IMG/VR virus record: IMGVR_UViG_2531839666_000012
Strand: one strand, 5' to 3'
Source of the DNA: a virus
Taxonomy: Duplodnaviria; Heunggongvirae; Uroviricota; Caudoviricetes
DNA: 37,013 nt
Part shown: piece by piece, positions 1-15,777 of the stretch
Layout: the number at the start of each line of letters is the position of its first letter
How positions within the stretch are numbered: position 1 is the first letter of the stretch
Notes under the pieces: generated by a model
What the model saw: the letters and a program-made list of their open reading frames with translations, nothing else
What the model was told of the DNA's origin: nothing
Database searches by the model: none
Program-made: the position numbers and the translations under genes

Positions 1-368
1 TCCACCAGCAACAAAATCCACCACAGAAAAAAACGGTTGTCAGTATCGCCGTTGATCCGGAGTCTCCTGAATCGTTCATGAGGCGGCCTAAACGTCGCCG
101 TTGGGTTAATGAGAAATACACGCGCTGGGTAAAGACACAGCCGTGTGCGTGTTGTGGTAAGCCAGCTGACGATCCACATCACCTGATTGGTCATGGTCAG
201 GGGGGAGTGGGAACAAAGGCCCACGATATTTTCACGCTACCGTTGTGCCGGGAGCACCACAACGAACTTCATGCAGACCCGCTGAAGTTTGAGAAAAAGT
301 ACGGCTCTCAGATTGAGTTAATTTTTCGTTTTCTTGATCACGCCTTTGCGACTGGCGTGCTCGGGTAA
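1..368 (+). CDS. DUF968-family prophage protein (YdfU-like), C-terminal part; 5' end lies outside the window
   Basis: Frame is open from position 3 with no stop before the ATG at 78; Cys/His-rich motif CACCGKPADDPHH...CREHH; sits immediately upstream of rusA and Q as in Qin/Rac-type prophages. Confidence 0.55.
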   Translation, partial: HQQQNPPQKKTVVSIAVDPESPESFMRRPKRRRWVNEKYTRWVKTQPCACCGKPADDPHHLIGHGQGGVGTKAHDIFTLPLCREHHNELHADPLKFEKKYGSQIELIFRFLDHAFATGVLG

Positions 369-380
369 AAGAGGTGACTG

Positions 381-743
381 ATGCTCATAGATTTGGTTTT
401 ACCTTACCCGCCGACGGTGAACACTTACTGGCGACGCCGTGGCAGCACATATTTTGTATCAAAAGCCGGGGAGCGTTATCGCCGGGCAGTGGCGCTTATT
501 GTTCGCCAGCAGCGACTGAAATTAAGCCTGTCCGGACGGCTGGCAATAAAAATTATTGCAGAGCCACCGGATAAGCGCCGCCGTGACCTGGACAATATTC
601 TGAAAGCACCGCTGGATGCGCTGACGCACGCGGGGTTGTTAATGGACGATGAGCAGTTTGATGAAATCAATATTGTACGTGGCCAGCCAGTATCTGGTGG
701 ACGGCTGGAGATAAGAATTACAGAGGTGGGTGTGCATGAATAG
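381..743 (+). CDS. rusA: RusA-family Holliday junction resolvase
   Basis: 120 aa; N-terminal LPYPPTVNTYW, catalytic RRRDLDN motif and C-terminal GGRLEIRITE match recalled E. coli RusA; SD AGAGGTGA 7 nt upstream of ATG 381. Confidence 0.85.
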   Translation: MLIDLVLPYPPTVNTYWRRRGSTYFVSKAGERYRRAVALIVRQQRLKLSLSGRLAIKIIAEPPDKRRRDLDNILKAPLDALTHAGLLMDDEQFDEINIVRGQPVSGGRLEIRITEVGVHE

Positions 744-1425
744 CCAGTATTTACAGTTTGTTCGTGAGCAACTCATGATTGCCACTGCGGATCTCAGTGG
801 GTCGACAAAAGGCCAGCTGGAAGCCTGGCAGGAAAATGCCCTGTTCGATACAGGGCGTTACAGACGTAAAAAAATTCGTTACCGCGATGAGGTAACCGGA
901 AAAATGATCACGCGGGATAATCCACCGATCCCGGGCAAACAATCACTGGCGAAAGGGACGTCAATTGCTCTGGTCAGTCCGGTTGAGTTTGCAACATCAT
1001 CGTGGCGGCGTGCCGTTCTGGAACTGGAAGAACATCAGAAGGCGTGGTTACTGTGGTGCTACAGTGGAAATGTTTGCTGGGAAGATCAGGTCACCATAAC
1101 ACAGTGGGTGTGGAGTGAATTTAAAACTCAGTCCGGCTCCAGAAAAATTGCAGTGAAAACGCTGGAGCGTGTGAAGAAGTTGATCTGGCTGGCGGCACAG
1201 GATGTCAGAGGATGGGTTACCGGGTGTGAGGTCTACCAGAGACAGGAGCTTGCCAGACTGTGTGGAGTTAAGCCTGATAACTGGAGCCATAATTATGCGA
1301 ACTACTGGCGTGAGATGTGCGATATTTTTAAGCGCCTCGATAGAGAATCCTTGATTTGCTCCGTGAAAATAAGAGCGCAACAAAAAGCGACCTTTTCACG
1401 ACGAGATATTGCAAAAGTCAATTAA
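736..1425 (+). CDS. Q: Late-gene antitermination protein Q (Phage_antitermQ-like)
   Basis: About 230 aa ORF directly after rusA and before terminators and late genes; SD GAGGTG 7 nt upstream of ATG 736; family assignment is by synteny and general resemblance, not a verified alignment. Confidence 0.6.
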   Translation: MNSQYLQFVREQLMIATADLSGSTKGQLEAWQENALFDTGRYRRKKIRYRDEVTGKMITRDNPPIPGKQSLAKGTSIALVSPVEFATSSWRRAVLELEEHQKAWLLWCYSGNVCWEDQVTITQWVWSEFKTQSGSRKIAVKTLERVKKLIWLAAQDVRGWVTGCEVYQRQELARLCGVKPDNWSHNYANYWREMCDIFKRLDRESLICSVKIRAQQKATFSRRDIAKVN

Positions 1426-1485
1426 ATCGCGTATGTTTCGTATAAATCTGATATTTTGCCGATTTTGTACGCGATGGCAAAGTAA

Positions 1486-1514
1486 GAAAAAACCACCGCC
1501 AGGTGGTTTTTTTT
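1486..1514 (+). terminator. Rho-independent terminator (candidate tR') downstream of Q
   Basis: Hairpin aaCCACCgccaGGTGGtt followed by an 8-T run. Confidence 0.5.
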
Positions 1515-1637
1515 ATGTCCGAAAATCTCGTCAGTACAGTAAACGCGCTGGTGGTGGTGAATACCGGTCTTTCAGCTTGCTGGCTTTTTTGACAAGAGTT
1601 ATTGGTGTGTCACGTTAACCGGAAAAGGGAAAAAGAC

Positions 1638-1835
1638 ATGCTGAAACAGCAGGATATGACAGAAACCGCCAGAGTGGTGTTTAATGAATTAAGTGCCACC
1701 GAACCGGCGACAGTCGGGGAGATTGCGCAGAATACTTATCTTTCACGTGAACGCTGCCAGTTAATACTGACCCAGCTTGTTATGGCGGGTCTGGCAGACT
1801 ATCAGTTCGGTTGTTACAGACGCCTTCAGTCCTGA
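1638..1835 (+). CDS. Small hypothetical protein (65 aa)
   Basis: ATG at 1638 with SD AAGGGA 7 nt upstream; terminator immediately after the stop; no recognised family. Confidence 0.4.
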   Translation: MLKQQDMTETARVVFNELSATEPATVGEIAQNTYLSRERCQLILTQLVMAGLADYQFGCYRRLQS

Positions 1836-1849
1836 AGGCTTTTTTATTT
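1822..1849 (+). terminator. Rho-independent terminator
   Basis: Stem GCCTTCAg/tGAAGGC with loop tcc, followed by TTTTTTATTT. Confidence 0.5.
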
Positions 1850-1985
1850 GTGGTAAATGGGCGGCTGGTGGGTGTTAGGGGCACTCACCAGCCATCTGCT
1901 CATGCGTCCGGATCACAAGCAAACCTCAGGCCCACTGCTTTGCGCAAAAGCAGAATGAGCCTATCAGAGACAGGCTTAATGATCC

Positions 1986-3044
1986 ATGCTTAATACTGTA
2001 AAAATATCCAGTTGTAAGTTAATCAACGCCGACTGCCTGGAATTTATCCGGTCGTTACCCGAAAATTCTGTTGACCTGATAGTCACGGACCCGCCGTACT
2101 TTAAAGTGAAGCCTGAGGGCTGGGATAACCAGTGGAAGGGCGACGATGATTACCTGAAGTGGCTGGACCAGTGTCTGGCGCAGTTCTGGCGGGTGCTGAA
2201 ACCTGCCGGAAGTCTTTACCTGTTCTGTGGCCATCGCCTGGCATCTGACATTGAAATCATGATGCGTGAACGCTTCAGTGTGCTGAACCATATTATCTGG
2301 GCGAAGCCGTCCGGACGCTGGAACGGGTGCAACAAGGAAAGCCTGAGGGCGTATTTCCCCGCCACAGAGCGCATTCTGTTCGCGGAACATTATCAGGGGC
2401 CGTATCGTCCGAAAGATGCCGGGTATGAGGCGAAGGGCAGGGCACTGAAACAGCATGTGATGGCCCCGCTGATTGCTTACTTTCGTGATGCACGTGCTGC
2501 CCTGGGGATAACGGCAAAACAGATTGCTGATGCCACAGGAAAGAAAAACATGGTGTCGCACTGGTTCAGTGCCAGTCAGTGGCAGCTACCGGACGAAAGC
2601 GATTATCTGAAATTACAGGCGCTGTTTGCCCGGGTGGCAGAAGAGAAGCATCAGCGCGGAGAACTGGAAAAGCCACATCACCAACTGGTCAGCACATACA
2701 GTGAACTGAACCGACACTATACGGAACTGCAGAGTGAATATAAGCATCTGCGGCGGTATTTCGGTGTGACGGCGCAGGTGCCGTACACCGATGTGTGGAC
2801 GCATAAACCGGTGCAGTACTATCCCGGGAAACATCCGTGCGAAAAACCGGCAGAAATGCTGCAGCAGATAATCAGCGCGAGCAGTCGTCCGGGTGACCTG
2901 GTTGCAGATTTTTTCATGGGGTCGGGTTCGACAGTCAAAGCAGCGATGGCGCTGGGGCGTCGTGCAACTGGCGTTGAGCTGGAGACTGAACGTTTTGAGC
3001 AGACGGTCAGGGAAGTTCAGGATTTAGCCAGTCAGAACGGATGA
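1986..3044 (+). CDS. DNA methyltransferase, N6_N4_Mtase (beta-class) family
   Basis: 352 aa; motif IV IVTDPPYF near the N-terminus and motif I FFMGSGST near the C-terminus (order IV then I). Confidence 0.8.
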   Translation: MLNTVKISSCKLINADCLEFIRSLPENSVDLIVTDPPYFKVKPEGWDNQWKGDDDYLKWLDQCLAQFWRVLKPAGSLYLFCGHRLASDIEIMMRERFSVLNHIIWAKPSGRWNGCNKESLRAYFPATERILFAEHYQGPYRPKDAGYEAKGRALKQHVMAPLIAYFRDARAALGITAKQIADATGKKNMVSHWFSASQWQLPDESDYLKLQALFARVAEEKHQRGELEKPHHQLVSTYSELNRHYTELQSEYKHLRRYFGVTAQVPYTDVWTHKPVQYYPGKHPCEKPAEMLQQIISASSRPGDLVADFFMGSGSTVKAAMALGRRATGVELETERFEQTVREVQDLASQNG

Positions 3045-3084
3045 TATTGCAGGATTAGTTACGTACCGTTATTATCCTGCGCCC

Positions 3085-3160
3085 GGCCCTTTAGCTCAGT
3101 GGTGAGAGCGAGCGACTCATAATCGCCAGGTCGCTGGTTCAAATCCAGCAAGGGCCACCA
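3085..3160 (+). tRNA. tRNA-Ile2 (anticodon CAU, lysidine type; ileX/ileZ-like)
   Basis: 76 nt cloverleaf: acceptor GGCCCTT/AAGGGCC, anticodon loop CTCATAA, T-loop TTCAAAT, encoded CCA; near-identical to recalled E. coli ileX. Confidence 0.8.
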
Positions 3161-3167
3161 TCACATA

Positions 3168-3244
3168 CCGCCATTAGCTCATCGGGATAGAGCGCCAGCC
3201 TTCGAAGCTGGTTGCGCGGGGTTCGAGTCCTCGATGGCGGTCCA
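3168..3244 (+). tRNA. tRNA-Arg (anticodon UCG)
   Basis: 77 nt; acceptor CCGCCAT/ATGGCGG, anticodon stem CCAGC/GCTGG with loop CTTCGAA, T-loop TTCGAGT, encoded CCA. Confidence 0.75.
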
Positions 3245-3257
3245 TTATCTGTACACT

Positions 3258-3334
3258 GCGTTGTTAGCTCAGCCGGACAGAGCAATTGCCTTCTAAGCAA
3301 TCGGTCACTGGTTCGAATCCAGTACAACGCACCA
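3258..3334 (+). tRNA. tRNA-Arg (anticodon UCU, argU-like rare-codon tRNA)
   Basis: 77 nt; acceptor GCGTTGT/ACAACGC, anticodon stem ATTGC/GCAAT with loop CTTCTAA, T-loop TTCGAAT, encoded CCA. Confidence 0.8.
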
Positions 3335-3419
3335 CACTTATTTTTCCTGGCTCGCTTTTGTGGGCCTTTTTTGCCTCCGCGCCACGCCCGGCGCATATCA
3401 ACCACAGAGCCTTTCACAA

Positions 3420-4355
3420 ATGGTTTTTCAGGAGTCCAATAATCGCGATGTCGCCAGAAAATACGCAGAGTACATCACGTCCGTTCCTTTGCGTCGGTTT
3501 GTCGCTGAAAAAGTGCGGGAATATTGTGGTGATCTGCCCCTGAGTATTTTTGATGGTGCGTGTGGCTCCGGGCAACTGGAGCAGTTTCTCACGGTGGGAA
3601 GTCTGTATGCTGTGGATATACAGGCCTCTCCGTTGGTGCATATCCCGGATAATTTCCCGGATGCCACAGTGAAGACGGTCAATGAAAATTTCTTCAACGC
3701 CATCGATGATGTCAGTGACACGGACACGTTCGATTGTGTCATCATGAATCCGCCTTTTTCGCTACAGTACAAAGCACAGAGCGCGGATATCAGGGAGAAG
3801 ATTTCAGCGATGATGCCTTATAAAAAGACCTCCGGTGTTCTGGATGACGCGTTTTATGTTCTGGCGAGCATGAAGGCAAGATTTTCATTTTTTTTGTGCT
3901 TTCCCGGGGTTGGTTACAGGCGTGGTGAGCTGGCAATGCGTCAGTATTTTGGCAACCGCGTTGTTGAGTTGGTTCAGATTTCAGGCGGGTTCGCTGATAC
4001 ATCGGTTTCTGTATTATTCGTCATTATTGATAACGAAAAGCAAAGCGATGATGTTGTTGTTTATGGCGTCGGGTTTAATGGGGAAACTTGCAAAAAGTCA
4101 GCGCCGGTGACGGAGAAGATTAACACAGACAACTGGAACAGGCCGTACATTGCTGAAGAGAAGGAGGTCATTGACATTGTACAGGTGACGGCTGAGTTGC
4201 TTGTAAGGCAAACAAGAAGACGGAAACTTGAAGATGAGCATAACGCCTTTGTGTGGTCCTTAATGAGTGATGATCAGCGGACGGAGGTTTCCCGTTTTCT
4301 GTCAGTGCACGGTTTGTTTTTTGATGCCGGTTCAGGTTGTGTGCACATACGTTAA
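3420..4355 (+). CDS. N6-adenine DNA methyltransferase (gamma-class), no adjacent restriction enzyme
   Basis: Motif I FDGACGSG then motif IV VIMNPPFS; start uncertain (ATG 3420 or GTG 3360, both lack a clear SD). Confidence 0.7.
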   Translation: MVFQESNNRDVARKYAEYITSVPLRRFVAEKVREYCGDLPLSIFDGACGSGQLEQFLTVGSLYAVDIQASPLVHIPDNFPDATVKTVNENFFNAIDDVSDTDTFDCVIMNPPFSLQYKAQSADIREKISAMMPYKKTSGVLDDAFYVLASMKARFSFFLCFPGVGYRRGELAMRQYFGNRVVELVQISGGFADTSVSVLFVIIDNEKQSDDVVVYGVGFNGETCKKSAPVTEKINTDNWNRPYIAEEKEVIDIVQVTAELLVRQTRRRKLEDEHNAFVWSLMSDDQRTEVSRFLSVHGLFFDAGSGCVHIR

Positions 4356-4404
4356 ATCTGGTGCCGGTCGCTGGTTGCCGGTGTCGTGATGATTGTCTTC
4401 CTGT

Positions 4405-4660
4405 TGCCCCGAAAATTTTAAATGTCTCACAATTCAGACGGTTGACAGTTGTCTGATTTGCGGGGAGTTTGTTAAAAGAAACTGGCATGGTGAATCCCCC
4501 TGAGCGGAGGGGCATATCAGCGACAGGTGTTTGGTTACATCCCTTATCCTTTCTGTGCGGGTTCAGGTGCTGATACTGAACTCACCGGGAGGCACCCGGC
4601 ACCATGCGCATGATGATACAGATACGCAGCGTCAGCCCCTCTCCGGAGGGGCTTTTCTGT
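4405..4660 (+). repeat. Hairpin-rich noncoding element, copy A (candidate sRNA gene)
   Basis: Shares with copy B a CA-rich box CTCACAATTCAG, TTGACA/TTGAAG -35-like hexamer, GC hairpin CCCCCTGAGCGGAGGGG, box CTGAACTCACCGGGAGGCACCCGGCA and terminator hairpin AGCCCCTCtccgGAGGGGCT+TTTT (4634-4660). Confidence 0.5.
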
Positions 4661-4892
4661 GCCGGATACATCACAGTTTCTGGAACCTTGGGTACTACAG
4701 TATCAGTCAGGGTGCTATATTTTCAGATGTGATGAAAGCCTGTCAGCAGGCAGGGCGTATCGGAAATGACCCAGTAGAGAAAACGTTGACTCAGATACCG
4801 GTGCTGAGTTACCGGGAAACCGGCATCACATGACCGCTATCCTTCCAGGCCCGTCCGCTCCGGTGGGCCTTTTTACTGCAGAAAACAGGTTC

Positions 4893-5148
4893 CCCGTTAA
4901 ATGCTATGTTGCTCACAATTCAGTCAGTTGAAGGTTGTCTTCCCGACTGAGAATTTGTTAAAAAATTTCTGCATGATGAATCCCCCTGTGCGGAGGGGCG
5001 GCTGGTGTACGGTATGGTCTCTGATGATCGTTAGCGAGAATGACGCGGGTTCGGTGGCACCGGGCTGAACTCACCGGGAGGCACCCGGCATCATGCAATG
5101 AACGGTACATAGCGCTACTCCAGCCCCTCTCCGGAGGGGCTTTCTTAT
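4893..5148 (+). repeat. Hairpin-rich noncoding element, copy B (candidate sRNA gene)
   Basis: Paralogue of copy A about 486 bp downstream with the same conserved boxes and terminator hairpin (5122-5148); a minus-strand terminator (GCCCGCAT/ATGCGGGC after an A-run) follows at 5152-5181. Confidence 0.5.
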
Positions 5149-5378
5149 GGATAAAAAAAGCCCGCATGGTGAGATGCGGGCAGCAAGGAATAAACAACAA
5201 AACGTGAAGTAATCAATTTTTCAGCTGGCGAATAATACCCGACAGTAATCACTCTGCGCAACTGCGCGGCCTTTTTCGTATTGCGGGCTGTAGTCTTCCT
5301 TCTGTCATTGTCCTGTAACTTCCGGACTTCAGCCCGCCCCTTATCTGACTCACAACATTATCCCGACCGGGAGGATTC

Positions 5379-6855
5379 ATGGCATTTAAACACTATGACG
5401 TGGTCAGGGCGGCGTCGCCGTCAGACCTTGCGGAGCGACTGACTCAAAAACTGAAGGAGGGGTGGCAGCCATTTGGCAGCCCGGTGGCCATCACGCCTTA
5501 TACCCTGATGCAGGCCATTGCGGCGGAAGGTGATGTCACCACACCTGTGGTGGTGAAGCCGTCGGATGGAGAAGGCACAGTTATCAGCGCCACCAGCGAC
5601 CCAGAGTATTACTACGTGATTACGCTGGCTGGCCAGTCAAACAGCATGGCATATGGTGAAGGCCTTCCGCTGCCGGAGACATATGACCGTCCGGACCCGC
5701 GTATTAAGCAGCTGGCGCGTCGCAGTACAGTGACACCGGGAGGTACTCCCTGTAAATATAACGACATCATTCCGGCAGACCATTGTCTTCATGATGTTGA
5801 AGATATGACCAGGCTAAAACCCCCCAAAGCTAAAGATGCAGAATACGGTTGTGTTGGCCAGGGTTTGCATATTGGTAAGAAACTACTGCCATTTATCCCT
5901 GCTAATGCAGGTATTCTGCTGGTCCCTTGTGGACGTGGCGGATCAGGCTTTAGTACCGGAACAGAAGGACAGTATTATGAAGCCTCTGGCGCAATCGACG
6001 CATCATCAAAATGGGGGCTTGGGACACCTCTATATAAAGATCTGGTTGCCAGAACCAAAGCTGCATTAGACAAAAACAAAAAGAACGTATTTCTTGGCGT
6101 TGTCTGGATGCAGGGTGAGGCAGATATGGCTGCCGGAAAACATGCAGAACACAATGCACTTTTCCTGAAAATGGTTGAAGGTTTCCGCACTGAGTTAGAG
6201 AAATATGATGCTCAATGCGTATATGGTAGTGCTGCGAAAGTCCCCTGGATTTGCGGCGATACCACGTATTACTGGAAAACCAAATACGCGTCTCAATATG
6301 AAGTTGTGTACGGTGGTTACAAAGGGAAAACGGATAAGGCTATTTATTTTGTTCCGTTTATGACGGATGAAAATAATGCAAATGTTACAACCAATAAGCC
6401 CGAGGAAGACCCGGATATTGAAGCTATTGGATATTATGGCTCCAAATGGCGTGATAGTTCAACAACATGGACGTCACAGTACAGAGATAGCCATTTTAGC
6501 TCATGGGCTCGTCGAGGTATCGTTTCGGATCGACTGGCAACAGCAATTGTAACCTATGCAGGTAAATCATCTGCCTTTGTGAATGGTATTACAGAAGTAA
6601 CAGCACCGGAAGAGGCGCCAACATCTTCTTCATCGCCAGCTTCTGAAGCTCATAATGAAGAAAATACGGTTGCCACTTCGGAGTCTGTCATTCTCTACGA
6701 TGCCAAAAAAGCTTCGGACAATCAGCTGAAACCTTATGGCTGGGACGGTATGGATGGCAGACGCACACTGGTTGATGACAGCGGCAATAAAGCTCTGCGA
6801 ATTGAGAAAAATAACAGCGCGAAATCCTGGTCAATGTACTGTGATATTGCTGCAG
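5379..6855 (+). pseudogene. nanS-p: nanS-p (prophage sialate O-acetylesterase), N-terminal part, interrupted by an IS
   Basis: DUF1737-like N-terminus, SGNH/sialate esterase motifs ITLAGQSNSMAYGEG and WMQGEAD; SD GGGAGG before ATG 5379; frame runs into the IS left end at 6856 and stops 29 nt inside it. Confidence 0.8.
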
Positions 6856-6909
6856 TGAATCGCCCCGGGAATCCTGGAGACTAAACTCCTTGAGAGAGAG
6901 GTAAACAGG

Positions 6910-7236
6910 ATGACTAAAAATACGCGCTTTTCCCCTGAGGTCCGTCAGCGGGCCGTTCGTATGGTTATCGAAAGCCAGAATGACTATGACTCGCAGTGGG
7001 CGGCCATCAGCTCCATCGCCCCTAAAATCGGCTGTACGCCTGAGACCCTGCGTACCTGGCTGCGTCAGTATGAGCGCGATGCCGGTGCAGGTGACGGCGG
7101 ACTGAGCACCACTGAACGTCAGCGTCTGAAGGAACTGGAGCGTGAAAACCGCGAACTGCGCCGCAGCAACGATATCCTGCGCCAGGCTTCCGCGTATTTT
7201 GCGAAGGCGGAGTTCGACCGCCTGTGGAAAAAATAG
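6910..7236 (+). CDS. IS3-family transposase OrfA (HTH/leucine zipper)
   Basis: 108 aa, [19 protein letters not shown]... matches recalled IS629/IS1203 OrfA; ends at an A6 slippery run (7228-7233). Confidence 0.85.
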
Positions 7237-8123
7237 CGCCTCTGGTGGATACCCTGCGTGGTGCGCACGGGGTCGGACCGGTATGCCACGAGCTGGCTGT
7301 CGCCCCGTCAACGTATTACCGGCATCGTGCGCATCAACGGCATCCGGATAAACGCAGTCAGCGGGCACAGCGTGATGACCTGCTGAAGCCGGAGATACAG
7401 CGCGTGTACGATGAAAACCACAGCGTGTACGGTGTGCGCAAGGTCTGGCGCCAGTTGTTGCGTGAGGGGGTGACCGTGGCCAGGTGCACAGTAGAACGGC
7501 TGATGAAGGTGATGGGGCTTGCCGGTGTGCGCCGGGGTAAAAAGGTCCGCACCACAGTCAGCCGGAAAGAAGCCGCTGCGGGTGACCGGGTGAACCGCCA
7601 GTTCGTGGCAGAACGCCCCGACCAGCTGTGGGTGGCTGACTTCACGTATGTGAGCACCTGGCAGGGCTTCGCTTACGTGGCGTTCATCATCGATGTGTTC
7701 GCCGGCGTCATTGTGGGCTGGCGGGTCTCATCGTCGATGAAAACGACGTTCGTGCTGGATGCACTGGAGCAGGCGCTGTGGGCCCGTCGCCCGTCGGGCA
7801 CCATCCATCACTCAGATAAGGGGTCACAATATGTGTCGCTGGCATACACTCAGCGGCTTAAGGATGCAGAGTTGCTGGCGTCAACCGGCAGCACAGGCGA
7901 CTCATATGACAACGCGATGGCGGAGAGCATCAACGGACTTTATAAAGCGGAGGTGATACATCGTAAGAGCTGGAAAAACCGCGCCGAAGTGGAACTGGCC
8001 ACACTGACGTGGGTGGACTGGTACAATAACCGACGGTTGCTGGAACGACTGGGTCATATCCCGCCGGCAGAAGCGGAAAAGGCATATTACGCTTCCATCG
8101 GAAATGGTGGTCTGGCAGCCTGA
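7224..8123 (+). CDS. IS3-family transposase OrfB (DDE catalytic domain)
   Basis: 299 aa in the -1 frame relative to orfA, overlapping its 3' end; likely made as an OrfAB fusion by programmed -1 frameshift. Confidence 0.85.
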
Positions 8124-8165
8124 GTTCACAGATAAAACACTCTCCCGGAAAACCGGGGCGGTTCA

Positions 8166-8650
8166 CAGACAAGGCAAAACTGTTACTGGAAAAAGGCGGG
8201 GAAATTGCTGTCCGGTTTAAAATCCCTGAAAACGTCAATCTTGAAACAACCAGAAACAAGTATGCCTTTGGTTTGTACTGGCGAATAGCGGAATGGCCGG
8301 GTGAGGGTGGTGAAGGCTATCTGAGTTCTTTCTTTGTCCAGACAGATAAAGCCAGTATTGATGTTGCATACCATCATACAGGTAATCAACAAAAAGAACT
8401 TGGCACGTTTGGCGCATTCGACCATGACTGGCATACGCTTGCATTTAAATTTAAGGGCAGTAACAGCATTAATGTTACTCCGGTGTTTGATGATGTGGAT
8501 GGACAGGCGTTTGACCTGGTGAAATGGGCCAATACTGCTAATGAACTCAACAGGTTTGTCATTACGGATATTACAGGTACTGCTGAAACTTACCCTGTAC
8601 TTATTGATACGGTGGAAGTTAAAGCAAACAAAGCTGGAGCAGCCGCATAA
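8166..8650 (+). pseudogene. nanS-p: nanS-p C-terminal fragment displaced by the IS
   Basis: Frame is open from 8168 to the stop at 8650 and, after removing the IS plus one CAG copy, is in frame with the 5379 ORF (offset 1313 = 2 mod 3). Confidence 0.65.
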
Positions 8651-8779
8651 TTGCTAAAAAAAGCCGCCAGCGGCAGGAATGGAAGCTGGCGGCTGGTAAA
8701 ACGACCATGATGACACCGAAGTCTGCGGTGTTTTTCTACAAAAATAAGTAAATCATGTCAACTATCACGGTGAGAAACC

Positions 8780-8962
8780 ATGACATTTCTGAACCAGTTA
8801 ATGCTGTACTTCTGTACGGCGGTCTGTGTGCTGTATCTTCTTTCGGGTGGGTACAGGGCAGTGCGCGATTTCTGGCGCAGGCAGATTGATAAAAGGGCCG
8901 CTGAGAAAATCAGCGCCAGTCAGTCAGCCGGAAGCAAACCCGAAGAGCCCATTACTCCTTAA
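8780..8962 (+). CDS. Hypothetical small membrane protein (60 aa)
   Basis: ORF with a hydrophobic N-terminal segment (LMLYFCTAVCVLYLLSGG); no family recognised. Confidence 0.35.
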   Translation: MTFLNQLMLYFCTAVCVLYLLSGGYRAVRDFWRRQIDKRAAEKISASQSAGSKPEEPITP

Positions 8963-8987
8963 TAACCCCTTTCAGCGAGAAAATCCT

Positions 8988-9233
8988 ATGTCAGAAGTAA
9001 AACCCCTGGTCACTGCTGAAGCAGTGAAGGAAGTCCTGCGCTCTGAAGAAGTCCTGAGCGCACTGAAACAGAAACTCCGCCAGAACCTTGAGTCGCGTCT
9101 TGATGCAGAAGTGGAGGCCATTCTGGATGAACTGCTGGGCGCACCGGCTGTTCCGGAGCCGGAAGGCATTGCGGGTGACGGGAGTGCTTCAGATGGCGGT
9201 GAACCCACACCCGACAGCGACATGATGATGTAA
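8988..9233 (+). CDS. Hypothetical acidic protein (81 aa)
   Basis: ATG 8988 preceded by GAGAAAA; acidic coiled-coil-like composition; immediately upstream of the holin. Confidence 0.45.
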
Positions 9234-9309
9234 GCATGCGCAAGGGACCATCGGTGTGTGCCGGTGGTCTTTATATTGTTGTGAGCTTCCGGATTGCGGG
9301 AGACGGGGT

Positions 9310-9526
9310 ATGTACCAGATGGAAAAAAGTCACAACAGGTGTGTCATACACCACGTCAGCGGTGGGAACGGGCTACTGGTTCCTGCAGTTGCTGGACAGG
9401 GTTTCCCCGTCTCAGTGGGCGGCAATAGGCGTGCTGGGGAGTCTGCTGTTTGGTCTGCTGACGTACCTGACGAACCTGTATTTCAAGATTAAAGAAGACC
9501 GTCGTAAGGCGGCGCGGGGAGAGTAG
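9310..9526 (+). CDS. S: Phage 21 S-type pinholin (class II holin), frame-disrupted at an A6 run as sequenced
   Basis: C-terminal 60 aa ([51 protein letters not shown]) match recalled S21; dual-start ATGs at 9310 and 9319 (MYQMEK) are in the +1 frame relative to the body and join it only if the A6 run 9323-9328 is A5; the track ORF 9236-9526 is the same body with a non-homologous N-terminal extension. Confidence 0.7.
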
Positions 9527-9529
9527 ACG

Positions 9530-10171
9530 ATGAACCATGAAGAAATGAATCAGCGCTTCAGTCGTCTGGAAAATGAAATTGCTGAACTGAATAAAAAACT
9601 GTCGGTGCTGATGCCTTCTGAAGATGCAAACAAACGCTGCGATGAGCAGTTTGCGGCGTTTTACGATGATTGCATCAAAATTGCTCGCAGGACCTTTGCG
9701 AAGATTTTGCAGGAAAAGTTTTTACCGGCCGCATTGTCAGAAAAGTACTCCATTACGGTTAAAAGTGCCGGAGAGGAAGGCAATAAGCGTTATTTTATTG
9801 CGTCTGCACCGGATAAAGACCAGGAATGGGAGTGTAACCGGCCATCCTTTGTTGTATCCGGTGATGACGGGAAAATCACCATATCAGAAAATGGAAAAGT
9901 AACACCGCCATCGCACCAGCACAGTGAGACGCTCATTGAATTTGCCATTGATTACCTGAAGAACAATAAAAAACAGGGGCTGATGAAGCGCATTGGTCGC
10001 TGCATGGGATATCTGCAGCTGGCGGCAGAGATTGAAGCACTTGCCAGTGGTGCAGACAGGGATGCTGCGGTGCGGGAGGGTCTTCTTTGTGATTTCAATA
10101 CGCCACCCTTTAAGAAAGAGCCTGATGGCTGGATCCAGCCGGGGCTGACTTATCTCAAATGGCGCATATAG
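9530..10171 (+). CDS. Hypothetical protein (213 aa) inserted between holin and endolysin
   Basis: SD GGGAG upstream of ATG 9530; predicted N-terminal coiled coil; lower GC than flanking lysis genes; no family recognised. Confidence 0.6.
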   Translation: MNHEEMNQRFSRLENEIAELNKKLSVLMPSEDANKRCDEQFAAFYDDCIKIARRTFAKILQEKFLPAALSEKYSITVKSAGEEGNKRYFIASAPDKDQEWECNRPSFVVSGDDGKITISENGKVTPPSHQHSETLIEFAIDYLKNNKKQGLMKRIGRCMGYLQLAAEIEALASGADRDAAVREGLLCDFNTPPFKKEPDGWIQPGLTYLKWRI

Positions 10172-10198
10172 TAAAAGAGAAAACAATTGAGGTGAAAA

Positions 10199-10426
10199 AT
10201 GAAAAAATACGATATGACAGTTAAATCATTCCACATGGGGGATAAAAATGTTGTCGTTGTCCTTGGTATATATAATTATCAGGTTCCATCAATGCTGTTG
10301 TTCAATATTGAAATAGATATTGAACGACGGGAAGATGCTACCATTCCGTTTTATGAGGCGCTGGCTTTAAAAAAAGCAGCCTCGCTAATTCATGAAATTT
10401 CTGATGATTTAGCAGTGGCTGCTTAG
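10199..10426 (+). CDS. Hypothetical protein (75 aa)
   Basis: SD GAGGTG 6 nt upstream of ATG 10199; AT-rich; no family recognised. Confidence 0.5.
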   Translation: MKKYDMTVKSFHMGDKNVVVVLGIYNYQVPSMLLFNIEIDIERREDATIPFYEALALKKAASLIHEISDDLAVAA

Positions 10427-10430
10427 ATTT

Positions 10431-10718
10431 TTATTTCAAAAATGGCTCAGGACTGGTATTGCCAAACATGGGTCTTACCGGTGGTTGCATGAGGGTATTG
10501 ATGGCGACTTTAATCTCTGGTTTACCTGAGGTTGTGATTTTGCTCAGTTCGCTATGTAACCTGGTTTTAAGCTCATCACTGAATTTCTTGTCTCCACTTT
10601 GCTGATCCAGAATGTCAACGATGTTGTAGAACAGGAAATTGGCTGCGGTATTTATAGCTATGTTTTCGCGCTGAAGCCCCTGAATTAGTTGAAAAAGTTC
10701 ATGGTTTGATATTTCCAT
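10431..10718 (-). CDS. Hypothetical protein (95 aa), convergent with the two preceding genes
   Basis: Minus-strand ATG at 10718 with SD AAGGAG 7 nt upstream (plus-strand CTCCTT at 10725-10730); track ORF extends to 10781 but has no RBS there. Confidence 0.5.
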   Translation of the reverse strand: MEISNHELFQLIQGLQRENIAINTAANFLFYNIVDILDQQSGDKKFSDELKTRLHSELSKITTSGKPEIKVAINTLMQPPVRPMFGNTSPEPFLK

Positions 10719-10842
10719 TAAGTTCTCCTTATTGAGGTTATCAGCCATCCCTCTTTTGTTACATGTGCCAGTGCCCACCACTGGCAGGCTGAAGACTTAA
10801 CATATCCAGGGATTCGGAACCGATAAATCCTGATAAATATCC

Positions 10843-11376
10843 ATGAACACCAAAATCAAATACGGCCTGTCGGCTGCCGTTCTGGCGCTGATTGCCGCAG
10901 GTGCGCCTGCGCCTGAAATCCTCGACCAGTTTCTTGACGAAAAAGAAGGTAACCACACCACGGCATACCGTGATGGTGCGGGTATCTGGACCATCTGCCG
11001 AGGTGCCACCCGGGTGGATGGTAAGCCTGTGATTCCTGGCATGACGCTGTCGAAGGGGAAATGCGACCAGGTTAACGCCATTGAGCGTGATAAAGCGCTG
11101 GCATGGGTGGAGAAAAACATCAGAGTGCCACTGACCGAACCCCAGAAAGCGGGGATCGCGTCATTCTGTCCTTACAACATTGGCCCCGGTAAGTGTTTCC
11201 CGTCGACGTTTTATAAACGAATTAATGCAGGCGATCGCAGGGGAGCGTGTGAAGCGATTCGCTGGTGGATTAAGGACGGTGGCAGAGACTGCCGTATCCG
11301 CTCAAATAATTGTTATGGTCAGGTATCCCGTCGTGACCAGGAGAGCGCGCTGGCGTGCTGGGGTATCGACAGATAA
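10843..11376 (+). CDS. R: SAR endolysin (T4-lysozyme-type muramidase, phage 21 R-like)
   Basis: N-terminal signal-anchor-release segment KYGLSAAVLALIAAGAPAP, then catalytic-region motif EGNHTTAYRDGAGIWTICRGAT. Confidence 0.85.
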   Translation: MNTKIKYGLSAAVLALIAAGAPAPEILDQFLDEKEGNHTTAYRDGAGIWTICRGATRVDGKPVIPGMTLSKGKCDQVNAIERDKALAWVEKNIRVPLTEPQKAGIASFCPYNIGPGKCFPSTFYKRINAGDRRGACEAIRWWIKDGGRDCRIRSNNCYGQVSRRDQESALACWGIDR

Positions 11377-11465
11377 GCAGAATATTTTGCTGAAAAATGA
11401 CGTTGACTAACGCGGACGGATAACACGAAATCCTGCGAACTGGCAAAACCTAAGTGAATAAAAGT

Positions 11466-11500
11466 AAAAACCCCGTTTGTTGGCAGCAAGCGGGGTTTTG
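11466..11500. terminator. Bidirectional rho-independent terminator
   Basis: Stem CCCCGtttg/caagCGGGG flanked by an A5 run upstream and T4 downstream. Confidence 0.45.
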
Positions 11501-11731
11501 TGTTTCTGACCTTGGATAAGGCAAGGGAGAACATGGAAAAGTATAAACGAATTCTGTTGAGGTTGACTATGAAAAACGGCCTTGAACTGAAAGCGCCAGA
11601 GTAACTGATGACATCAGCAGAGCGCTGGCTTTTGCTATTAAGTGGGTGGCGGTTGGTATCGCTGTGTCTCCGATACTGTATGGGCTGGCAAAACTGGTCA
11701 TTGCGTTGAAATCGTGAAGGGAGGATTAAGC

Positions 11732-11863
11732 ATGTCAGACAAACTCATAATGCTGGCGAAGATCCTCTGTGTAATCGTCGGCATTTCATTTTCACTAATG
11801 CTGGTTGCTATTTGCTTTTCCACTGCCTGGCGCGTCTTAACTCTGTCAGGGCTGGTGGGGTGA
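11732..11863 (+). CDS. Hypothetical small membrane peptide (43 aa)
   Basis: ATG 11732 preceded by GGGAGGA; single predicted TM helix ILCVIVGISFSLMLVAICF; ends 8 nt before the methyltransferase start. Confidence 0.35.
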   Translation: MSDKLIMLAKILCVIVGISFSLMLVAICFSTAWRVLTLSGLVG

Positions 11864-11870
11864 CAGAAAC

Positions 11871-12806
11871 ATGAAATGTGTACTGTATTCCGGTGACTGT
11901 CTTGATGTTATGCCTTCATTACTACCGGGAAGTGTTGACCTGGTTTTATGTGACCCGCCGTATGGAACCATTAAAGGGCTTACACTCCGTACATGGGATA
12001 AGAGTACGACAGCATGGGACGATGCCTTAAATCCTGAAGATATTTTCACACAGTGCGAACGACTGCTGAGGGTGGGCGGTGTGCTGGTCATGTTCAGCCA
12101 GGAGCCGCATACAAGCACGATGATTACTCTGGCGGATAAAAACCTGCCGTTTTTATATCGTATGGTGTGGAAGAAGGAGCATTTCCCCAACCCGCTTTCA
12201 GTAAAAAAAGCACCTGTATCTTTATTCGAGGATATCGTTGTTTTCCGGAAAAAATATGACAGTGAGAAAAACCACCCGCTGAGGGAGTACGCCCGAAATA
12301 TCCTTTCTTTCATTGGCCACAGGACAGACAAGGAAGTTAACAAAACACTGGGGCACCGTCGGGCAGAGCATTTTTTTTGCGTGAACACACTCCAGTTTTC
12401 CCTCTGCTCACAGGATACGTATAACGAGTTAATTAAACGCTTTGGTATCGACCGTATGCCGGGTTTCATGACATATGAAGAAATGCGCAAAGTGAATTCC
12501 GGTTACGGCACTGTGGTTTTTAATCTCCCTCAGGGGAAAAAATACCGCGCAAATATTCTGGAGTACGCGCGGGAGCGGGAGCGATGGCATCCGACCCAGA
12601 AGCCAGTTGCATTACTGGAAGAGCTGATTCAGACGTACAGCAACCCTGGCGACAGGGTACTGGATTTTACTATGGGGAGTGGTTCAACAGGTGTTGCATG
12701 TATCCGGACGGGGAGACGGTTTACCGGAATAGAAAAGGATGACCGGTATTTCGCTGTTGCAAAAAAACGTCTGGAAAAAGAAAACAGTGAAATGGTGGTG
12801 ATATGA
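11871..12806 (+). CDS. DNA methyltransferase, N6_N4_Mtase (beta-class) family, inserted between R and Rz
   Basis: Motif [10 protein letters not shown] near the N-terminus and motif [10 protein letters not shown] near the C-terminus. Confidence 0.8.
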
Positions 12807-13270
12807 ACCGTGTTCTGTGTGTGGTGATTATTGTCCTGCTGGTGGCCTGTGGTGCGCTTAGTCTGGGGCTGAATCATTACCGCGATAACGCCATCACCTA
12901 CAAAGCGCAGCGCGATAAAAAAGCCAGAGAGCTGGAGCTGGCAAACGCAACCATTACTGATATGCAGGTGCGCCAGCGCGATGTTGCTGCGCTCGATGCA
13001 AAATACTCGAGGGAATTAGCCGATGCGAGAGCTGAAAATGAAACTCTGCGTGCTGATGTTGCCGCTGGTCGTAAGCGCCTGCGGGTTAAAGCCACCTGTC
13101 CAGGCTCCGTGCGTGAAGCCCCCACCACCTCCGGCGTGGATAATGCAACCGGCCCCCGACTGGCAGACACCGCTGAACGGGATTATTTCATCCTCAGAGA
13201 ACGGTTGATGACAATGCAGAAGCAGCTGGAAGGGGCGCAGGAATATATCCGCACTCAGTGTATTAGCTAG
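12803..13270 (+). CDS. Rz: Rz inner-membrane spanin (i-spanin)
   Basis: Closely matches recalled lambda Rz ([16 protein letters not shown]..., [40 protein letters not shown]); N-terminal TM helix. Confidence 0.9.
13038..13208 (+). CDS. Rz1: Rz1 outer-membrane lipoprotein spanin (o-spanin), embedded in Rz in the +1 frame
   Basis: [15 protein letters not shown] lipobox signal then proline-rich [27 protein letters not shown], matching recalled lambda Rz1. Confidence 0.8.
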
Positions 13271-13293
13271 TATTTTTGTTATCCGGAGAATGC

Positions 13294-13518
13294 ATGAAGA
13301 AATTACTGGTAACCGTAAAGTCTTTTCAGGGAACAATTCCGTTCCGTATTTTGCAGTGTGGTCGTGTTCTTGTTGAAGGTTCGTTCAGTGGTAAATGTAC
13401 GCAATTACACTCCCGGACCTTTCAGGTGAATGCCACGAATGAAGAGCTAACCGTTGAGTGTACGATGAATGCCGCTAAATGCCGCATGGTATCCGCTGCA
13501 TTACAGCCAGTGTGTTGA
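13294..13518 (+). CDS. Hypothetical protein (74 aa)
   Basis: ATG 13294 (MKKLLVTVKSF...) with GGAG upstream; no family recognised. Confidence 0.4.
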   Translation: MKKLLVTVKSFQGTIPFRILQCGRVLVEGSFSGKCTQLHSRTFQVNATNEELTVECTMNAAKCRMVSAALQPVC

Positions 13519-13856
13519 GCGACCTTATTATCCATGCGCGGTATTGTCGCCGTATTCCTGCATTAACAGAGACCGCAGCCCGACCGGGAGACTCCTCTGC
13601 GCGAGTGTGCGGGGATAATCAAAAACGATACACACCGGGGTTTACCGCGTTAACGGAGCGCGGCGTTGTCCCCTCATGGTCGCTGGTCCGGTGCGATGGT
13701 GGAAGAAACCGGACGATGTGTTACCTCGCAAGCTCTGTTATGTCATGTGTCTGATTTGTGATTTAAGTCGGATAATTGTCGTTGCCATTAAGCAGAGGAT
13801 TGATGACCGACAGGGTGGCATTGTTAGAATAAGACTTATTCTTATCTGTGCCGGGA

Positions 13857-14189
13857 ATGAAAATGAAAAGAAATCTTCCGTTAATTATTTTGTTGTCTTC
13901 TCTGGTTATGGGCTGTACGCAACATAAAACAGATATGCCCCGACAGTTGGTTAAGGCATTACCACAATATCCGGCCTATGCAGCGGCAAATTATATAAAG
14001 GGACGGGTTGATGTGAAGTTTGATATTGGTGCTGATGGTACTGTCACCCGAATTGAGTTTATCCGTTCAGAGCCGCACCATCTGTTTGATGAGCAGGTTG
14101 TAAAAGCGATGGCAAAATGGCGATTTGAGAAGGACAGGCCGCGTAAAGGCGTGAAGAAAACGTTTATCTTTAGTCCTTCTGCACCCTGA
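13857..14189 (+). CDS. Putative lipoprotein with TonB C-terminal-like domain
   Basis: Signal peptide with lipobox LVMGC; C-terminal region resembles the TonB_C fold (VDVKFDIGADGTVTRIEF...HHLFDEQVVKAMAKWRF); start could be 13848, 13857 or 13863. Confidence 0.5.
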   Translation: MKMKRNLPLIILLSSLVMGCTQHKTDMPRQLVKALPQYPAYAAANYIKGRVDVKFDIGADGTVTRIEFIRSEPHHLFDEQVVKAMAKWRFEKDRPRKGVKKTFIFSPSAP

Positions 14190-14320
14190 TTATTTCATCA
14201 GAAATTAATTATCACTCTGTTGTTATTCTGTACATCCCGGCTGGGTAAGTCTTGTTCCGCCGGGTATGAAGATGAAATATTGTTGGAGGACAGTGGGTAC
14301 CTGCTCCTGTAACCGAACGT

Positions 14321-14521
14321 TCATTTCTCGTTATTTGTCATGCTGGCCGGGCGCAGGTGCGTTGCATCTGTTGCCAGCCTTCTCCGGCAGGCTTCAATAA
14401 CCCACGCTGAAAAGTTACCGGACCCTTTATGCTCAAGGGCGATGTTGATCTGTTCAATCATGTGATTGGGGAAACGGATATTGCGGGTTGTGGTTCTGCG
14501 GGTCCGGTTTTTCGATGACAT
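14321..14521 (-). CDS. YlcI/YnfO-family (DUF3950) small prophage protein
   Basis: MSSKNRTRRTTTRNIRFPN..IEQINIALE.KGSGNFSAWVIEACRRRL matches recalled DLP12 YlcI / Qin YnfO; minus-strand SD AAGGAA. Confidence 0.6.
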   Translation of the reverse strand: MSSKNRTRRTTTRNIRFPNHMIEQINIALEHKGSGNFSAWVIEACRRRLATDATHLRPASMTNNEK

Positions 14522-14562
14522 ATTTATTTCCTTTACTGATTGCCTTATGACGGGGATTTTAC

Positions 14563-14928
14563 ATGGCTGAGCTTCGTACACTCCAGAGCAGAATCAAAAC
14601 ACTGAATACCCGACGGGTGAATATTCTGAAGGGTGAACAGCGTCGTGTCAGTGGCAGTGCACGTGTTTCCCTCAAGCGTCATATCTGGCTCAGGGATGCC
14701 GGGCAGTGCTGTCTCTGTGGTCGTGTGGTTGACCTCTGTGACAGTGAACTCGATCACCGAATTGCACTTCAGTTCGGTGGTGGTAATGAGGAGACGAATC
14801 TCTGGACGCTCTGTACCGAATGCCATCGACAAAAGTCTGCTCGTGAAGCGGCGGGTGGTATGCCGGACCCGACACTGCCGGAGGTGTCCGGAGGTAGTGG
14901 CAGAGCGGACGACATCATCGGACTGTAA
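14563..14928 (+). CDS. HNH endonuclease (packaging-associated)
   Basis: CxxC...DHRIALQFGG..NLWTLCTECH zinc-finger HNH signature; sits directly upstream of the cos region and terminase, as in HK97-like cos phages. Confidence 0.8.
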   Translation: MAELRTLQSRIKTLNTRRVNILKGEQRRVSGSARVSLKRHIWLRDAGQCCLCGRVVDLCDSELDHRIALQFGGGNEETNLWTLCTECHRQKSAREAAGGMPDPTLPEVSGGSGRADDIIGL

Positions 14929-15755: not shown

Positions 15756-15777
15756 ATAATGATAATGAGGGCAGCGG

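Follow-up and report, generated by a model that had tools for sequence, protein, structure and literature searches.

Between positions 5,379 and 8,650 of a 37,013-nucleotide stretch of virus DNA (hereafter, the window), an esterase reading frame runs into a pair of transposase genes and appears to resume beyond them. The question raised by this locus is whether a single gene has been split by transposition and, if so, by which element and with what consequence for the encoded protein. The initial annotation, made from the letters of the sequence, described a prophage-borne sialic acid esterase gene, nanS-p, inactivated by an IS629-like element. We consider it very probable that an IS3-family element of 1,310 bp, a relative of IS629, inserted itself at codon 493 of a prophage nanS-p gene 652 codons long and duplicated the trinucleotide CAG (Table 1). 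The incoming element is a rare relative of IS629/IS1203 that doubles its 3-bp target here as it does elsewhere; the nanS-p reading frame now stops 9 codons inside the insertion sequence (IS), and the 501-aa product keeps DUF1737 and the NanS-like catalytic domain but would lose the carbohydrate-binding module. A slippery run of six A residues (A6) and an ALIL pseudoknot would drive the -1 frameshift that yields the OrfAB transposase of the element.

Table 1 Features of the interrupted nanS-p locus (positions in the window).
Feature	Position	Strand	Remarks
nanS-p, 5' part	5379–6855	+	Codons 1–492 plus base 1 of codon 493
Truncated ORF, 501 aa	5379–6884	+	492 native residues followed by VNRPGNPGD from the left end of the IS; stop codon TAA at 6882–6884
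Target-site duplication, left copy, CAG	6853–6855	none	Single CAG at the empty site of JNEC-KY174
IS3-family insertion sequence, complete	6856–8165	+	1,310 bp; relative of IS629, ~84% nucleotide identity
Left terminal inverted repeat	6856–6880	+	Begins TGAATCGCCCCGG
orfA, 108 aa, helix-turn-helix N-terminal part of the transposase	6910–7236	+	Pfam HTH_Tnp_1, E = 2.7e-13
OrfAB fusion	6910–8123	+	Predicted form in which orfB is expressed; -1 frameshift
ALIL frameshift-stimulating pseudoknot	7191–7307	+	Rfam RF01497, full-length match
orfB, DDE/rve integrase-type catalytic part	7224–8123	+	Pfam rve, E = 4.3e-26, plus HTH_21 and rve_3
A6 run	7228–7233	+	Directly 5' of the orfA stop codon; putative -1 frameshift site, exact slip position predicted
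Right terminal inverted repeat	8141–8165	+	Ends CCGGGGCGGTTCA
Target-site duplication, right copy, CAG	8166–8168	none	Read from the sequence and the comparison with JNEC-KY174
nanS-p, 3' part	8169–8650	+	Remainder of codon 493 through the stop codon; most of the lectin-like C-terminal domain

Joining 5379–6855 to 8169–8650, that is, removing the IS together with one copy of CAG, gives a 1,959-nt reading frame that is continuous, free of internal stops and encodes 652 amino acids, close to the approximately 650 anticipated in the initial annotation. The restored protein displays the three domains that characterize NanS-p, namely, DUF1737, a NanS-like esterase domain of the SASA family and a lectin-like C-terminal domain. 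Pfam places DUF1737 at residues 3–50, SASA at 81–286 and DUF6645 at 499–610, whereas the structures of NanS (PDB 3PT5) and of the NanS-p C-terminal domain (6YP6) match residues 71–393 (E = 6e-111) and 444–646 (E = 1.1e-40), respectively, so that the identification of the host gene as a DUF1737-SGNH nanS-p is confirmed. Two of the SGNH blocks, block I (GQSN, residue 85) and block IV (RDSH, residue 369), align with their counterparts in 3PT5, the latter conforming to the R-x-S-H pattern; in published nanS-p alleles, block IV is RSSH or RASH (PMC10462455). The part of the gene upstream of the IS encodes DUF1737, the esterase domain, a linker and about 50 residues of the C-terminal domain. The downstream part lacks an upstream start, its first in-frame start codon being a TTG at 8273 (ORF 8273–8650).

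The restored gene is a NanS-p, a predicted sialate O-acetylesterase. NCBIfam contained no model naming the esterase, and tblastn retrieved full-length matches of the restored protein to the gene located downstream of stx in Stx phages. The NanS-p proteins of these phages (933W L0105/Z1466; phi24B vb_24B_21, also denoted gp84; 6YP6) share the three-domain architecture. The catalytic domain of the window allele is 72% identical to that of the 933W-type protein, but identity to Stx-phage NanS-p, including the O157 Stx2a-phage forms, drops to 54–58% overall and 43% in the C-terminal domain. Because the identity to characterised NanS-p enzymes is just 54–58%, the substrate of the window allele itself is assigned by analogy with these relatives. 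The chromosomal NanS (YjhS; 9-O-acetyl-N-acetylneuraminate esterase; 337 aa, the protein in 3PT5) conserves GQSN and R-x-S-H but, unlike the restored NanS-p, contains neither DUF1737 nor the lectin-like domain.

The genomic neighborhood fits this assignment. Based on collinearity with the annotated genome of Escherichia coli JNEC-KY174, the gene order is Q (736–1425), tRNAs (3085–3334), a methyltransferase gene, nanS-p, holin (9310–9526) and lysozyme (10843–11376). This places nanS-p between the Q/tRNA block and the lysis genes in the late operon of a lambdoid prophage, the location that the nanS-p genes of Stx phages occupy as well. The prophage in the window itself lacks stx and encodes siphovirus-type tail genes.

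The ends of the element are sharply defined. It starts at 6856 and ends at 8165, with imperfect terminal inverted repeats of the 5'-TG...CA-3' type that is typical of the IS3 family; pairing of 6855–6880 with 8141–8166 spans 26 nt, of which 21 (81%) are complementary. A direct CAG repeat flanks the element on both sides, within the 3–5 bp range of IS3-family duplications when checked against the empty site described below. Realignment thus left the ends and the direct repeat in place. The coding content is that of an IS3-family member as well: orfA (helix-turn-helix) and orfB (DDE/rve) overlap, with a programmed -1 frameshift between them, and both are co-oriented with nanS-p. When fused at the A6 run, the 404-aa OrfAB scores 367.8 bits against the NCBIfam model transpos_IS3 (cut-off 160), and the ALIL match reaches 95.3 bits compared to a gathering score of 50; PGAP annotates identical copies of the IS with a 1,214-nt CDS labelled "programmed frameshift". 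With orfA and orfB intact, the A6 run and ALIL present, and both terminal repeats in place, the element looks fully functional. A scan of the IS for promoters and terminators revealed no terminator-like site on the + strand and no notable promoter, a result compatible with either the presence or the absence of polar effects on the lysis genes. The assignment to an IS3-family, IS629-like element is borne out by domain, RNA and repeat searches alike.

The element occurs once in the window; seven other E. coli genomes contain full-length IS copies that match its 1,310 bp at 100% identity. The six copies inspected lie in unrelated contexts, and five of these six are flanked by their own 3-bp duplications (GAT, ATA, ATG, CAA and GCA). 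Some of the BLAST matches extended a few bases past the IS, and we considered a target-sequence preference; the six other sites, however, have no target in common, and this idea was set aside.

The counterpart of the interrupted gene is available in uninterrupted form. E. coli JNEC-KY174 (NZ_AP045170.1), an O128ab:H2 Shiga toxin-producing strain (STEC) included in a study of LEE-negative isolates, carries an intact 1,959-bp gene (WP_062872806.1) that is 100.0% identical to the joined fragments, with homology extending across the junction. On this genome, the two BLAST segments overlap by exactly three bases, CAG (subject positions 7475–7477), so that the empty site is seen directly. Two further genomes among the 5,426 complete E. 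coli genomes searched encode an uninterrupted copy of this allele, 99.9% and 99.7% identical, respectively. Together, the 100% identical intact allele, the exact CAG overlap, the identical IS copies and their own 3-bp duplications elsewhere argue against a chance explanation of the junctions. Positions 1–6855 of the window are 99.97% identical to JNEC-KY174, and the region of the 3' part of nanS-p is collinear with it. Several 1-bp indels, about half of them at homopolymer runs, distinguish the window from this closest relative, and the base-level quality of the window is accordingly uncertain. The homopolymer sites comprise 9329, 14944, 15739, 16044 and others within J, and they point either to sequencing errors or to a defective prophage.

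The IS does not differ at a single position from its nearest relatives, and neither does the gene, from which we infer that the insertion was recent. The initial annotation called it clean and datable. Clean it is, whereas no absolute date follows from zero differences, and "recent" is all that holds.

The identity of the element requires a correction. It has been described as IS629-type and typical of O157-like backgrounds, but its nucleotide sequence matches the annotated IS629 of BP-4795 at 84.0%, the PA33 copy at 83.4%, and copies from O103:H2 12009 and further STEC genomes at 84.2% identity, and the nearest genome is the LEE-negative O128ab:H2 strain, which does not represent an O157-like background. 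Under the ISfinder convention, isoforms of one IS share at least 95% nucleotide identity. Given that all the above values fall below this threshold, the element is not IS629 (isoforms IS1203 and IS3411) but, as judged by sequence identity, a distinct, rare relative of IS629/IS1203. At the amino acid level, OrfA and OrfB are approximately 88% and 86% identical, respectively, to those of IS629, and the NCBIfam label for the transposase is "IS3 family", with no finer name. The two types of elements have much in common, including the length of 1,310 bp, the orfA/orfB arrangement with its -1 frameshift and ALIL pseudoknot, target duplications of 3–4 bp and nearly matching termini (TGAAC/TCGCCCCGG ... 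CCGGGGCGGTTCA). They differ in abundance: IS629/IS1203/IS3411 are abundant in O157, O103 and other enterohemorrhagic strains, whereas the best match to the element reached at least 95% identity in only 32 E. coli records out of 6,855 that gave a match (20,395 searched). Copies with 99.3% identity reside on Salmonella enterica plasmids of ~245–248 kb. JNEC-KY174 contains IS629-type sequences in three places, compared to 13–26 places in those O103:H2 chromosomes and further STEC genomes that were listed with 84% (IS629-type) matches.

Two alternatives dispute the insertion itself. One holds that a repeated IS was mis-assembled into nanS-p and that the gene of the strain is in fact intact. Mis-joins often originate at IS elements, the evidence for the junctions comes from one assembled sequence, and the other small indels relative to the nearest genome could be sequencing errors. 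The junction is also absent from the other collections searched: the 5379–8650 stretch has no place covering at least 80% of it in the 5,426 complete E. coli genomes, the exact sequence of the 501-aa truncated protein is missing from the assembly collection, and none of the metagenome contigs scanned contained an exact match to the 35-nt left junction. A mis-join, however, is not expected to produce exact ends, a 3-bp duplication like those at five other sites of this IS and an in-frame rejoining at 100% identity all at once, and base errors of the kind represented by the indels could not give rise to a 1,310-bp element flanked by an exact repeat of its target, so that we regard an assembly artefact as very unlikely. 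The other alternative, in which the gene originally contained the IS and the intact alleles of related genomes arose by precise excision, appears even less credible, indeed nearly negligible. It is formally conceivable given that three intact copies of the allele are known, but nothing specific speaks in its favor. IS3-family elements seldom excise so precisely as to leave a single copy of the target. Among the phage-borne homologs, those aligned over their full length show no interruption at this site, and the one IS-split example seen, in phage PA33, is broken elsewhere. Moreover, the IS shows no difference from its copies elsewhere, and the disrupted allele is found in none of the 5,426 complete E. 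coli genomes.

With a recent transposition into nanS-p as the preferred reading, the question becomes what the truncated product can still do. The break at residue 493 falls about 50 residues into the lectin-like domain, so that the 501-aa ORF retains DUF1737 and a complete NanS-like catalytic domain (residues 71–393), with roughly three quarters of the lectin-like domain missing. In architecture, this product resembles the chromosomal NanS with an N-terminal DUF1737 added. The lost portion includes all four positions proposed to bind sugar in vb_24B_21, Y510, Y515, Y540 and F611 (PMC10462455), which map to residues 524, 529, 548 and 617, downstream of the break; two of these four aromatic residues are identical in the window allele and the other two are changed, Y to F and F to N. 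[quoted passage not shown] The role in capsid decoration has been demonstrated for this podovirus, whereas the window prophage is a non-Stx one with siphovirus-type tail genes.

These observations pull in different directions. The truncated protein might be misfolded or degraded such that the esterase function of the prophage is lost altogether, and we give this outcome somewhat less than an even chance. The jelly-roll domain is broken after about 50 of its approximately 200 residues and extended by nine foreign ones, and this remnant of a beta-sandwich could destabilise the protein; the proposed sugar-binding positions are all gone; and the contribution of both domains to activity in phi24B favors at least a partial loss. 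Against a complete loss stands the catalytic domain, including GQSN and the block IV histidine of RDSH, which is encoded in its entirety upstream of the break. Furthermore, the catalytic domain may work alone, by analogy with the chromosomal NanS, which has no C-terminal counterpart, and with gp84, which discards this domain. Finally, the C-terminal domain is interrupted by IS629 in 18 of 59 O157 Stx2a phages (PMC10462455), so that C-terminal truncations are at least well tolerated. We estimate the odds that the 501-aa protein retains catalytic activity as roughly even and read the outcome as the loss of a carbohydrate-binding module rather than a proven null. The statement that the insertion inactivates the esterase thus goes too far as worded, although a loss of activity is possible.

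Insertions of this kind are not without precedent. The published IS629/IS1203 insertions in nanS-p of Stx2a phages represent one of the two most frequent forms of the gene in O157 Stx2a phages, denoted sequence 16/CTR3 by Pascal et al. 2023 and exemplified by phage PA33 (KP682385) (PMC10462455). [quoted passage not shown] PA33 carries IS629/IS1203 rather than its ~84% identical relative, at codon 557 rather than 493, in the orientation opposite to nanS-p rather than the same, and with a 4-bp duplication (AAAG) rather than the 3-bp CAG, and the O157 Stx2a phages carry stx, which the window prophage lacks. Other O157 prophages have nanS-p interrupted directly behind nt 1644 or nt 1806. We considered a hot spot for insertion in the C-terminal part but set it aside because the retrieval was ranked by the length of nanS-p sequence beside the IS, which favors C-terminal sites.

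It is tempting to suggest that repeated independent insertions of IS629-family elements in this domain are not neutral hits but reflect tolerance of an esterase that lacks its carbohydrate-binding module, or even selection for such an enzyme; we consider this improbable. If true, the truncated product would mimic the autoprocessed form, still catalytically active and associated with the capsid, and the window allele and the intact allele that is 100% identical to it would make a natural pair for testing the C-terminal domain. The insertion event is real, cleanly defined, of an already described kind and biologically ordinary, with no new biology implied. For annotation, 5379–6884 and 8169–8650 are best treated as one interrupted nanS-p, either a pseudogene or a truncated gene, and the element as an IS3-family relative of IS629, for which the label "IS629" is unsuitable. 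Side by side, the interrupted allele and its 100% identical intact counterpart also provide a natural comparison for the putative role of the NanS-p lectin-like domain. As a private and recent marker, the insertion could aid strain typing or tracing in an O128:H2-like STEC lineage.

The ORF that starts at 5379 is closed by a TAA at 6882-6884, as read from the sequence and the ORF listing, and its final nine codons (VNRPGNPGD) are read from the sequence of a mobile element that begins with TGAATCGCCCCGG at 6856 and finishes at 8165 with CCGGGGCGGTTCA, the reverse complement of the left-end sequence. The element is 1,310 bp long, with imperfect terminal inverted repeats (21 of 26 positions complementary), and is flanked by CAG on both sides, at 6853-6855 and 8166-8168. 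Splicing of 5379-6855 to 8169-8650 yields 1,959 nt that encode 652 aa in frame, without internal stops. All parts of the initial annotation, namely the ORF, the element ends, the CAG repeats, and the restorable ORF, were found where it had placed them.

Given that a 3-bp repeat by itself has a 1 in 64 chance of occurrence, we sought the empty site by a megablast search for 5379-8650 in a set of 5,426 complete E. coli genomes. None of these genomes contained the interrupted form; three encompass a contiguous 1,959-bp gene that unites both fragments and is annotated as 'SASA family carbohydrate esterase', with 100.0% identity in JNEC-KY174 (O128ab:H2; NZ_AP045170.1), 99.9% in FHI_NMBU_11, and 99.7% in CFIAFB20190167. 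Comparison with intact nanS-p alleles thus bears out the restored ORF, the junction being included in the 100.0% match to the JNEC-KY174 gene (WP_062872806.1). The window aligns with the JNEC-KY174 locus as two segments, 1-6855 and 8166-14651, that share exactly three reference bases, the single CAG of that genome; this is direct proof that the element inserted here with a 3-bp target duplication. The boundaries are independently confirmed by 100% end-to-end matches to the 1,310-bp element in seven other genomes. The contexts of the six copies that were inspected are unrelated, and five of these have 3-bp duplications of their own (GAT, ATA, ATG, CAA, and GCA); the sixth, that of JNEC-KY174 (371600-372909), has no duplication and adjoins IS1 and integrase remnants, and therefore belongs to a rearranged IS cluster.

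Coordinates of features in the interrupted gene, the inserted element, and the surrounding prophage
Feature	Position	Strand	Basis or remark
orfA	6910-7236		HTH_Tnp_1 (Pfam)
orfB	7224-8123		HTH_21, rve, rve_3 (Pfam)
A6 run	7228-7233		upstream of orfA stop
ALIL frameshift pseudoknot	7191-7307		Rfam full-length match, 95.3 bits vs gathering score 50
DUF1737	residues 3-50 of restored protein		Pfam
SASA	residues 81-286 of restored protein		Pfam
DUF6645	residues 499-610 of restored protein		Pfam
STnc100 sRNA family match	4456-4662	+	one of two copies
STnc100 sRNA family match	4942-5152	+	other of two copies
DNA methyltransferase gene	1986-3044	+	collinearity with annotated JNEC-KY174
DNA methyltransferase gene	3420-4355	+	collinearity with annotated JNEC-KY174
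DNA methyltransferase gene	11871-12806	+	collinearity with annotated JNEC-KY174

The element is an intact member of the IS3 family, as indicated by the orfA and orfB domains, the A6 run, and the ALIL pseudoknot, along with the 404-aa product obtained when orfA and orfB are joined by a -1 shift in the A run (367.8 bits with the NCBIfam IS3 transposase model) and the PGAP annotation of identical copies as a 1,214-nt CDS with a programmed frameshift. By the ISfinder convention, isoforms share at least 95% nucleotide identity. Identification as IS629 was rejected against this convention, given the ~83-84% identity to annotated IS629 copies: 84.0% for that of BP-4795 and 83.4% for that of the Stx2a phage PA33 (KP682385), with ~88% and ~86% amino-acid identity of OrfA and OrfB in PA33. 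In EHEC genomes, IS629/IS1203 copies number in the thousands and match the element in the 80-90% identity band. 'IS629-like', as the element had been called, is a fair description, whereas the name IS629 would be wrong under the isoform convention. The element is rare in E. coli (of 20,395 records searched, 6,855 gave a match, and in 32 of these the best match reached at least 95%) and is also present on large Salmonella enterica plasmids, at 99.3% identity.

The host gene can be assigned to nanS-p, albeit as a divergent allele, because of its three-domain architecture and its position among the late genes of a lambdoid prophage. Residues 71-393 of the restored protein match the E. coli NanS/YjhS structure 3PT5 (E = 6e-111), and residues 444-646 match 6YP6, the crystallised C-terminal domain of NanS-p (E = 1e-40); conservation extends to the GQSN block at residue 85 and to the histidine of block IV (RDSH, residue 369), in a comparison that included published data (PMC10462455). 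In tblastn searches, the restored protein is 54% identical to the Stx2a-phage type and 74% identical to the closest phage copy; global alignment with the 933W-type protein gives 58% identity over the full length (catalytic domain, 72%; C-terminal domain, 43%). Collinearity with the annotated JNEC-KY174 genome places the genes in the order Q, methyltransferase, three tRNAs, second methyltransferase, nanS-p, DUF1378, DUF826, holin, and lysozyme; head and tail genes come next, and stx is absent.

Several other features of the late region were observed. The two STnc100 matches (134.9 and 168 bits), each closed by a terminator-like hairpin (4634-4653 and 5122-5141), lie in an ORF-poor gap of ~1 kb that separates a methyltransferase gene from nanS-p; in Stx phages, this position is occupied by stx. 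Two of the three methyltransferase genes flank the tRNA cluster, and the third lies between lysozyme and Rz. The first tRNA (3085-3160, + strand) is called Met (CAT anticodon) by ARAGORN and, for an identical gene, tRNA-Ile by PGAP, the latter being the lysidine-modified Ile tRNA that lambdoid late regions usually carry.

The break falls at residue 493, about 50 residues inside the C-terminal lectin-like domain, and the 501-aa truncated ORF retains DUF1737 and the entire catalytic domain. In the phi24B homologue (vb_24B_21, or gp84), four aromatic residues have been proposed as the sugar-binding site (PMC10462455); the corresponding residues here, 524, 529, 548, and 617, are all downstream of the break, and the first in-frame start of the 3' fragment is a TTG at 8273. 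The insertion could be a simple null, as claimed in the initial annotation, given that the catalytic and the C-terminal (jelly-roll) domains are both reported to contribute to enzymatic activity in the phi24B homologue (bioRxiv 10.64898/2026.04.10.717836) and that a broken beta-sandwich may destabilise the truncated protein. However, chromosomal NanS naturally lacks the lectin-like domain, gp84 is reported to decorate the capsid via DUF1737 and to shed its C-terminal domain by autoproteolysis (bioRxiv 10.64898/2026.04.10.717836), and a C-terminal domain split by an IS ranks among the commonest nanS-p forms in O157 Stx2a phages (PMC10462455). Inactivation was over-stated; the odds that the 501-aa product retains catalytic activity are put at about even. 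Because the IS has the same orientation as the late operon and a promoter and terminator scan detected no terminator-like site within it on the + strand, strong polarity on the lysis genes would not be predicted.

The suggested O157-like background is not supported, given that the prophage is 99.7-99.97% identical across most of its length to that of JNEC-KY174, a clinical O128ab:H2 STEC described in work on LEE-negative strains (PMC13534694). The JNEC-KY174 genome has only three IS629-type places, compared to 13-26 in the O103:H2 chromosomes among those listed and in further STEC genomes with 84% (IS629-type) matches. The insertion is probably recent because neither the IS, compared with its other copies, nor the gene fragments, compared with the intact allele, show any differences; 'datable' goes further than this, as no date can be derived. 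An exact look-up of the assembly collection did not recover the 501-aa protein, nor did an exact scan of metagenome contigs recover the left junction.

The window differs from JNEC-KY174 by 1-bp indels in holin, terS, terL, and J, about half of them at homopolymer runs, which may represent either real prophage decay or sequencing errors; the IS finding is unaffected, but single-base conclusions from the window need care. In the class II holin gene (9310-9526), a 1-bp insertion at 9329, which could be either genuine or due to erroneous sequencing, shifts the frame past codon 6, and an upstream ATG at 9236 would yield a 96-aa N-terminally extended ORF holding the remaining holin. Further indels (14944, 15739, 16044, and 33251-35694), several at homopolymer runs, break the terS/terL and J genes into separate frames, such as ORFs 33294-33923 and 33821-36700, suggestive of a defective, decaying prophage or of limited base accuracy of the window. 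The portal-region gene (19651-22397) is split into ORFs 19651-21015 and 21012-22397, likewise in JNEC-KY174 (PGAP 'frameshifted'), and contains a 162-bp tandem repeat (21177-21928; 4.6 copies, 92% match) that corresponds to a 54-aa repeat. An ompC porin paralogue, 100% identical to the JNEC-KY174 copy, lies inside the tail gene module (29163-30317, + strand). Of the 67 mismatches within the 8166-32073 block, 57 cluster in the terminase region (14000-17000), and a 268-bp patch of the tail assembly gene (32071-32338) has no match to JNEC-KY174; both point to probable mosaic recombination among related prophages.

Pascal et al. reported IS629/IS1203-interrupted nanS-p, including a 634-aa form ('sequence 16', CTR3) in 18 of 59 Stx2a phages (PMC10462455). 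In PA33, one of these phages, IS629 is inserted at codon 557, in the orientation opposite to nanS-p, with a 4-bp AAAG duplication, and its removal restores a 645-aa protein. In the Stx1a prophage of O103:H2 strain 12009, IS629/IS1203 breaks a nanS-p paralogue after nt 387, with everything up to the lysozyme gene lost, and in two O157:H7 genomes, nanS-p paralogues are broken by IS629/IS1203 after nt 1806 and nt 1644. These insertions, including that in PA33, are mutually independent. Relative to the published IS-split nanS-p, the present case involves another IS, another insertion site, another allele, and a different type of prophage. The core interpretation of the initial annotation holds, and the IS identity, strain background, and inactivation were over-stated. 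IS insertion in nanS-p is already known, and the case described here is a further instance of what is, biologically, an ordinary feature.
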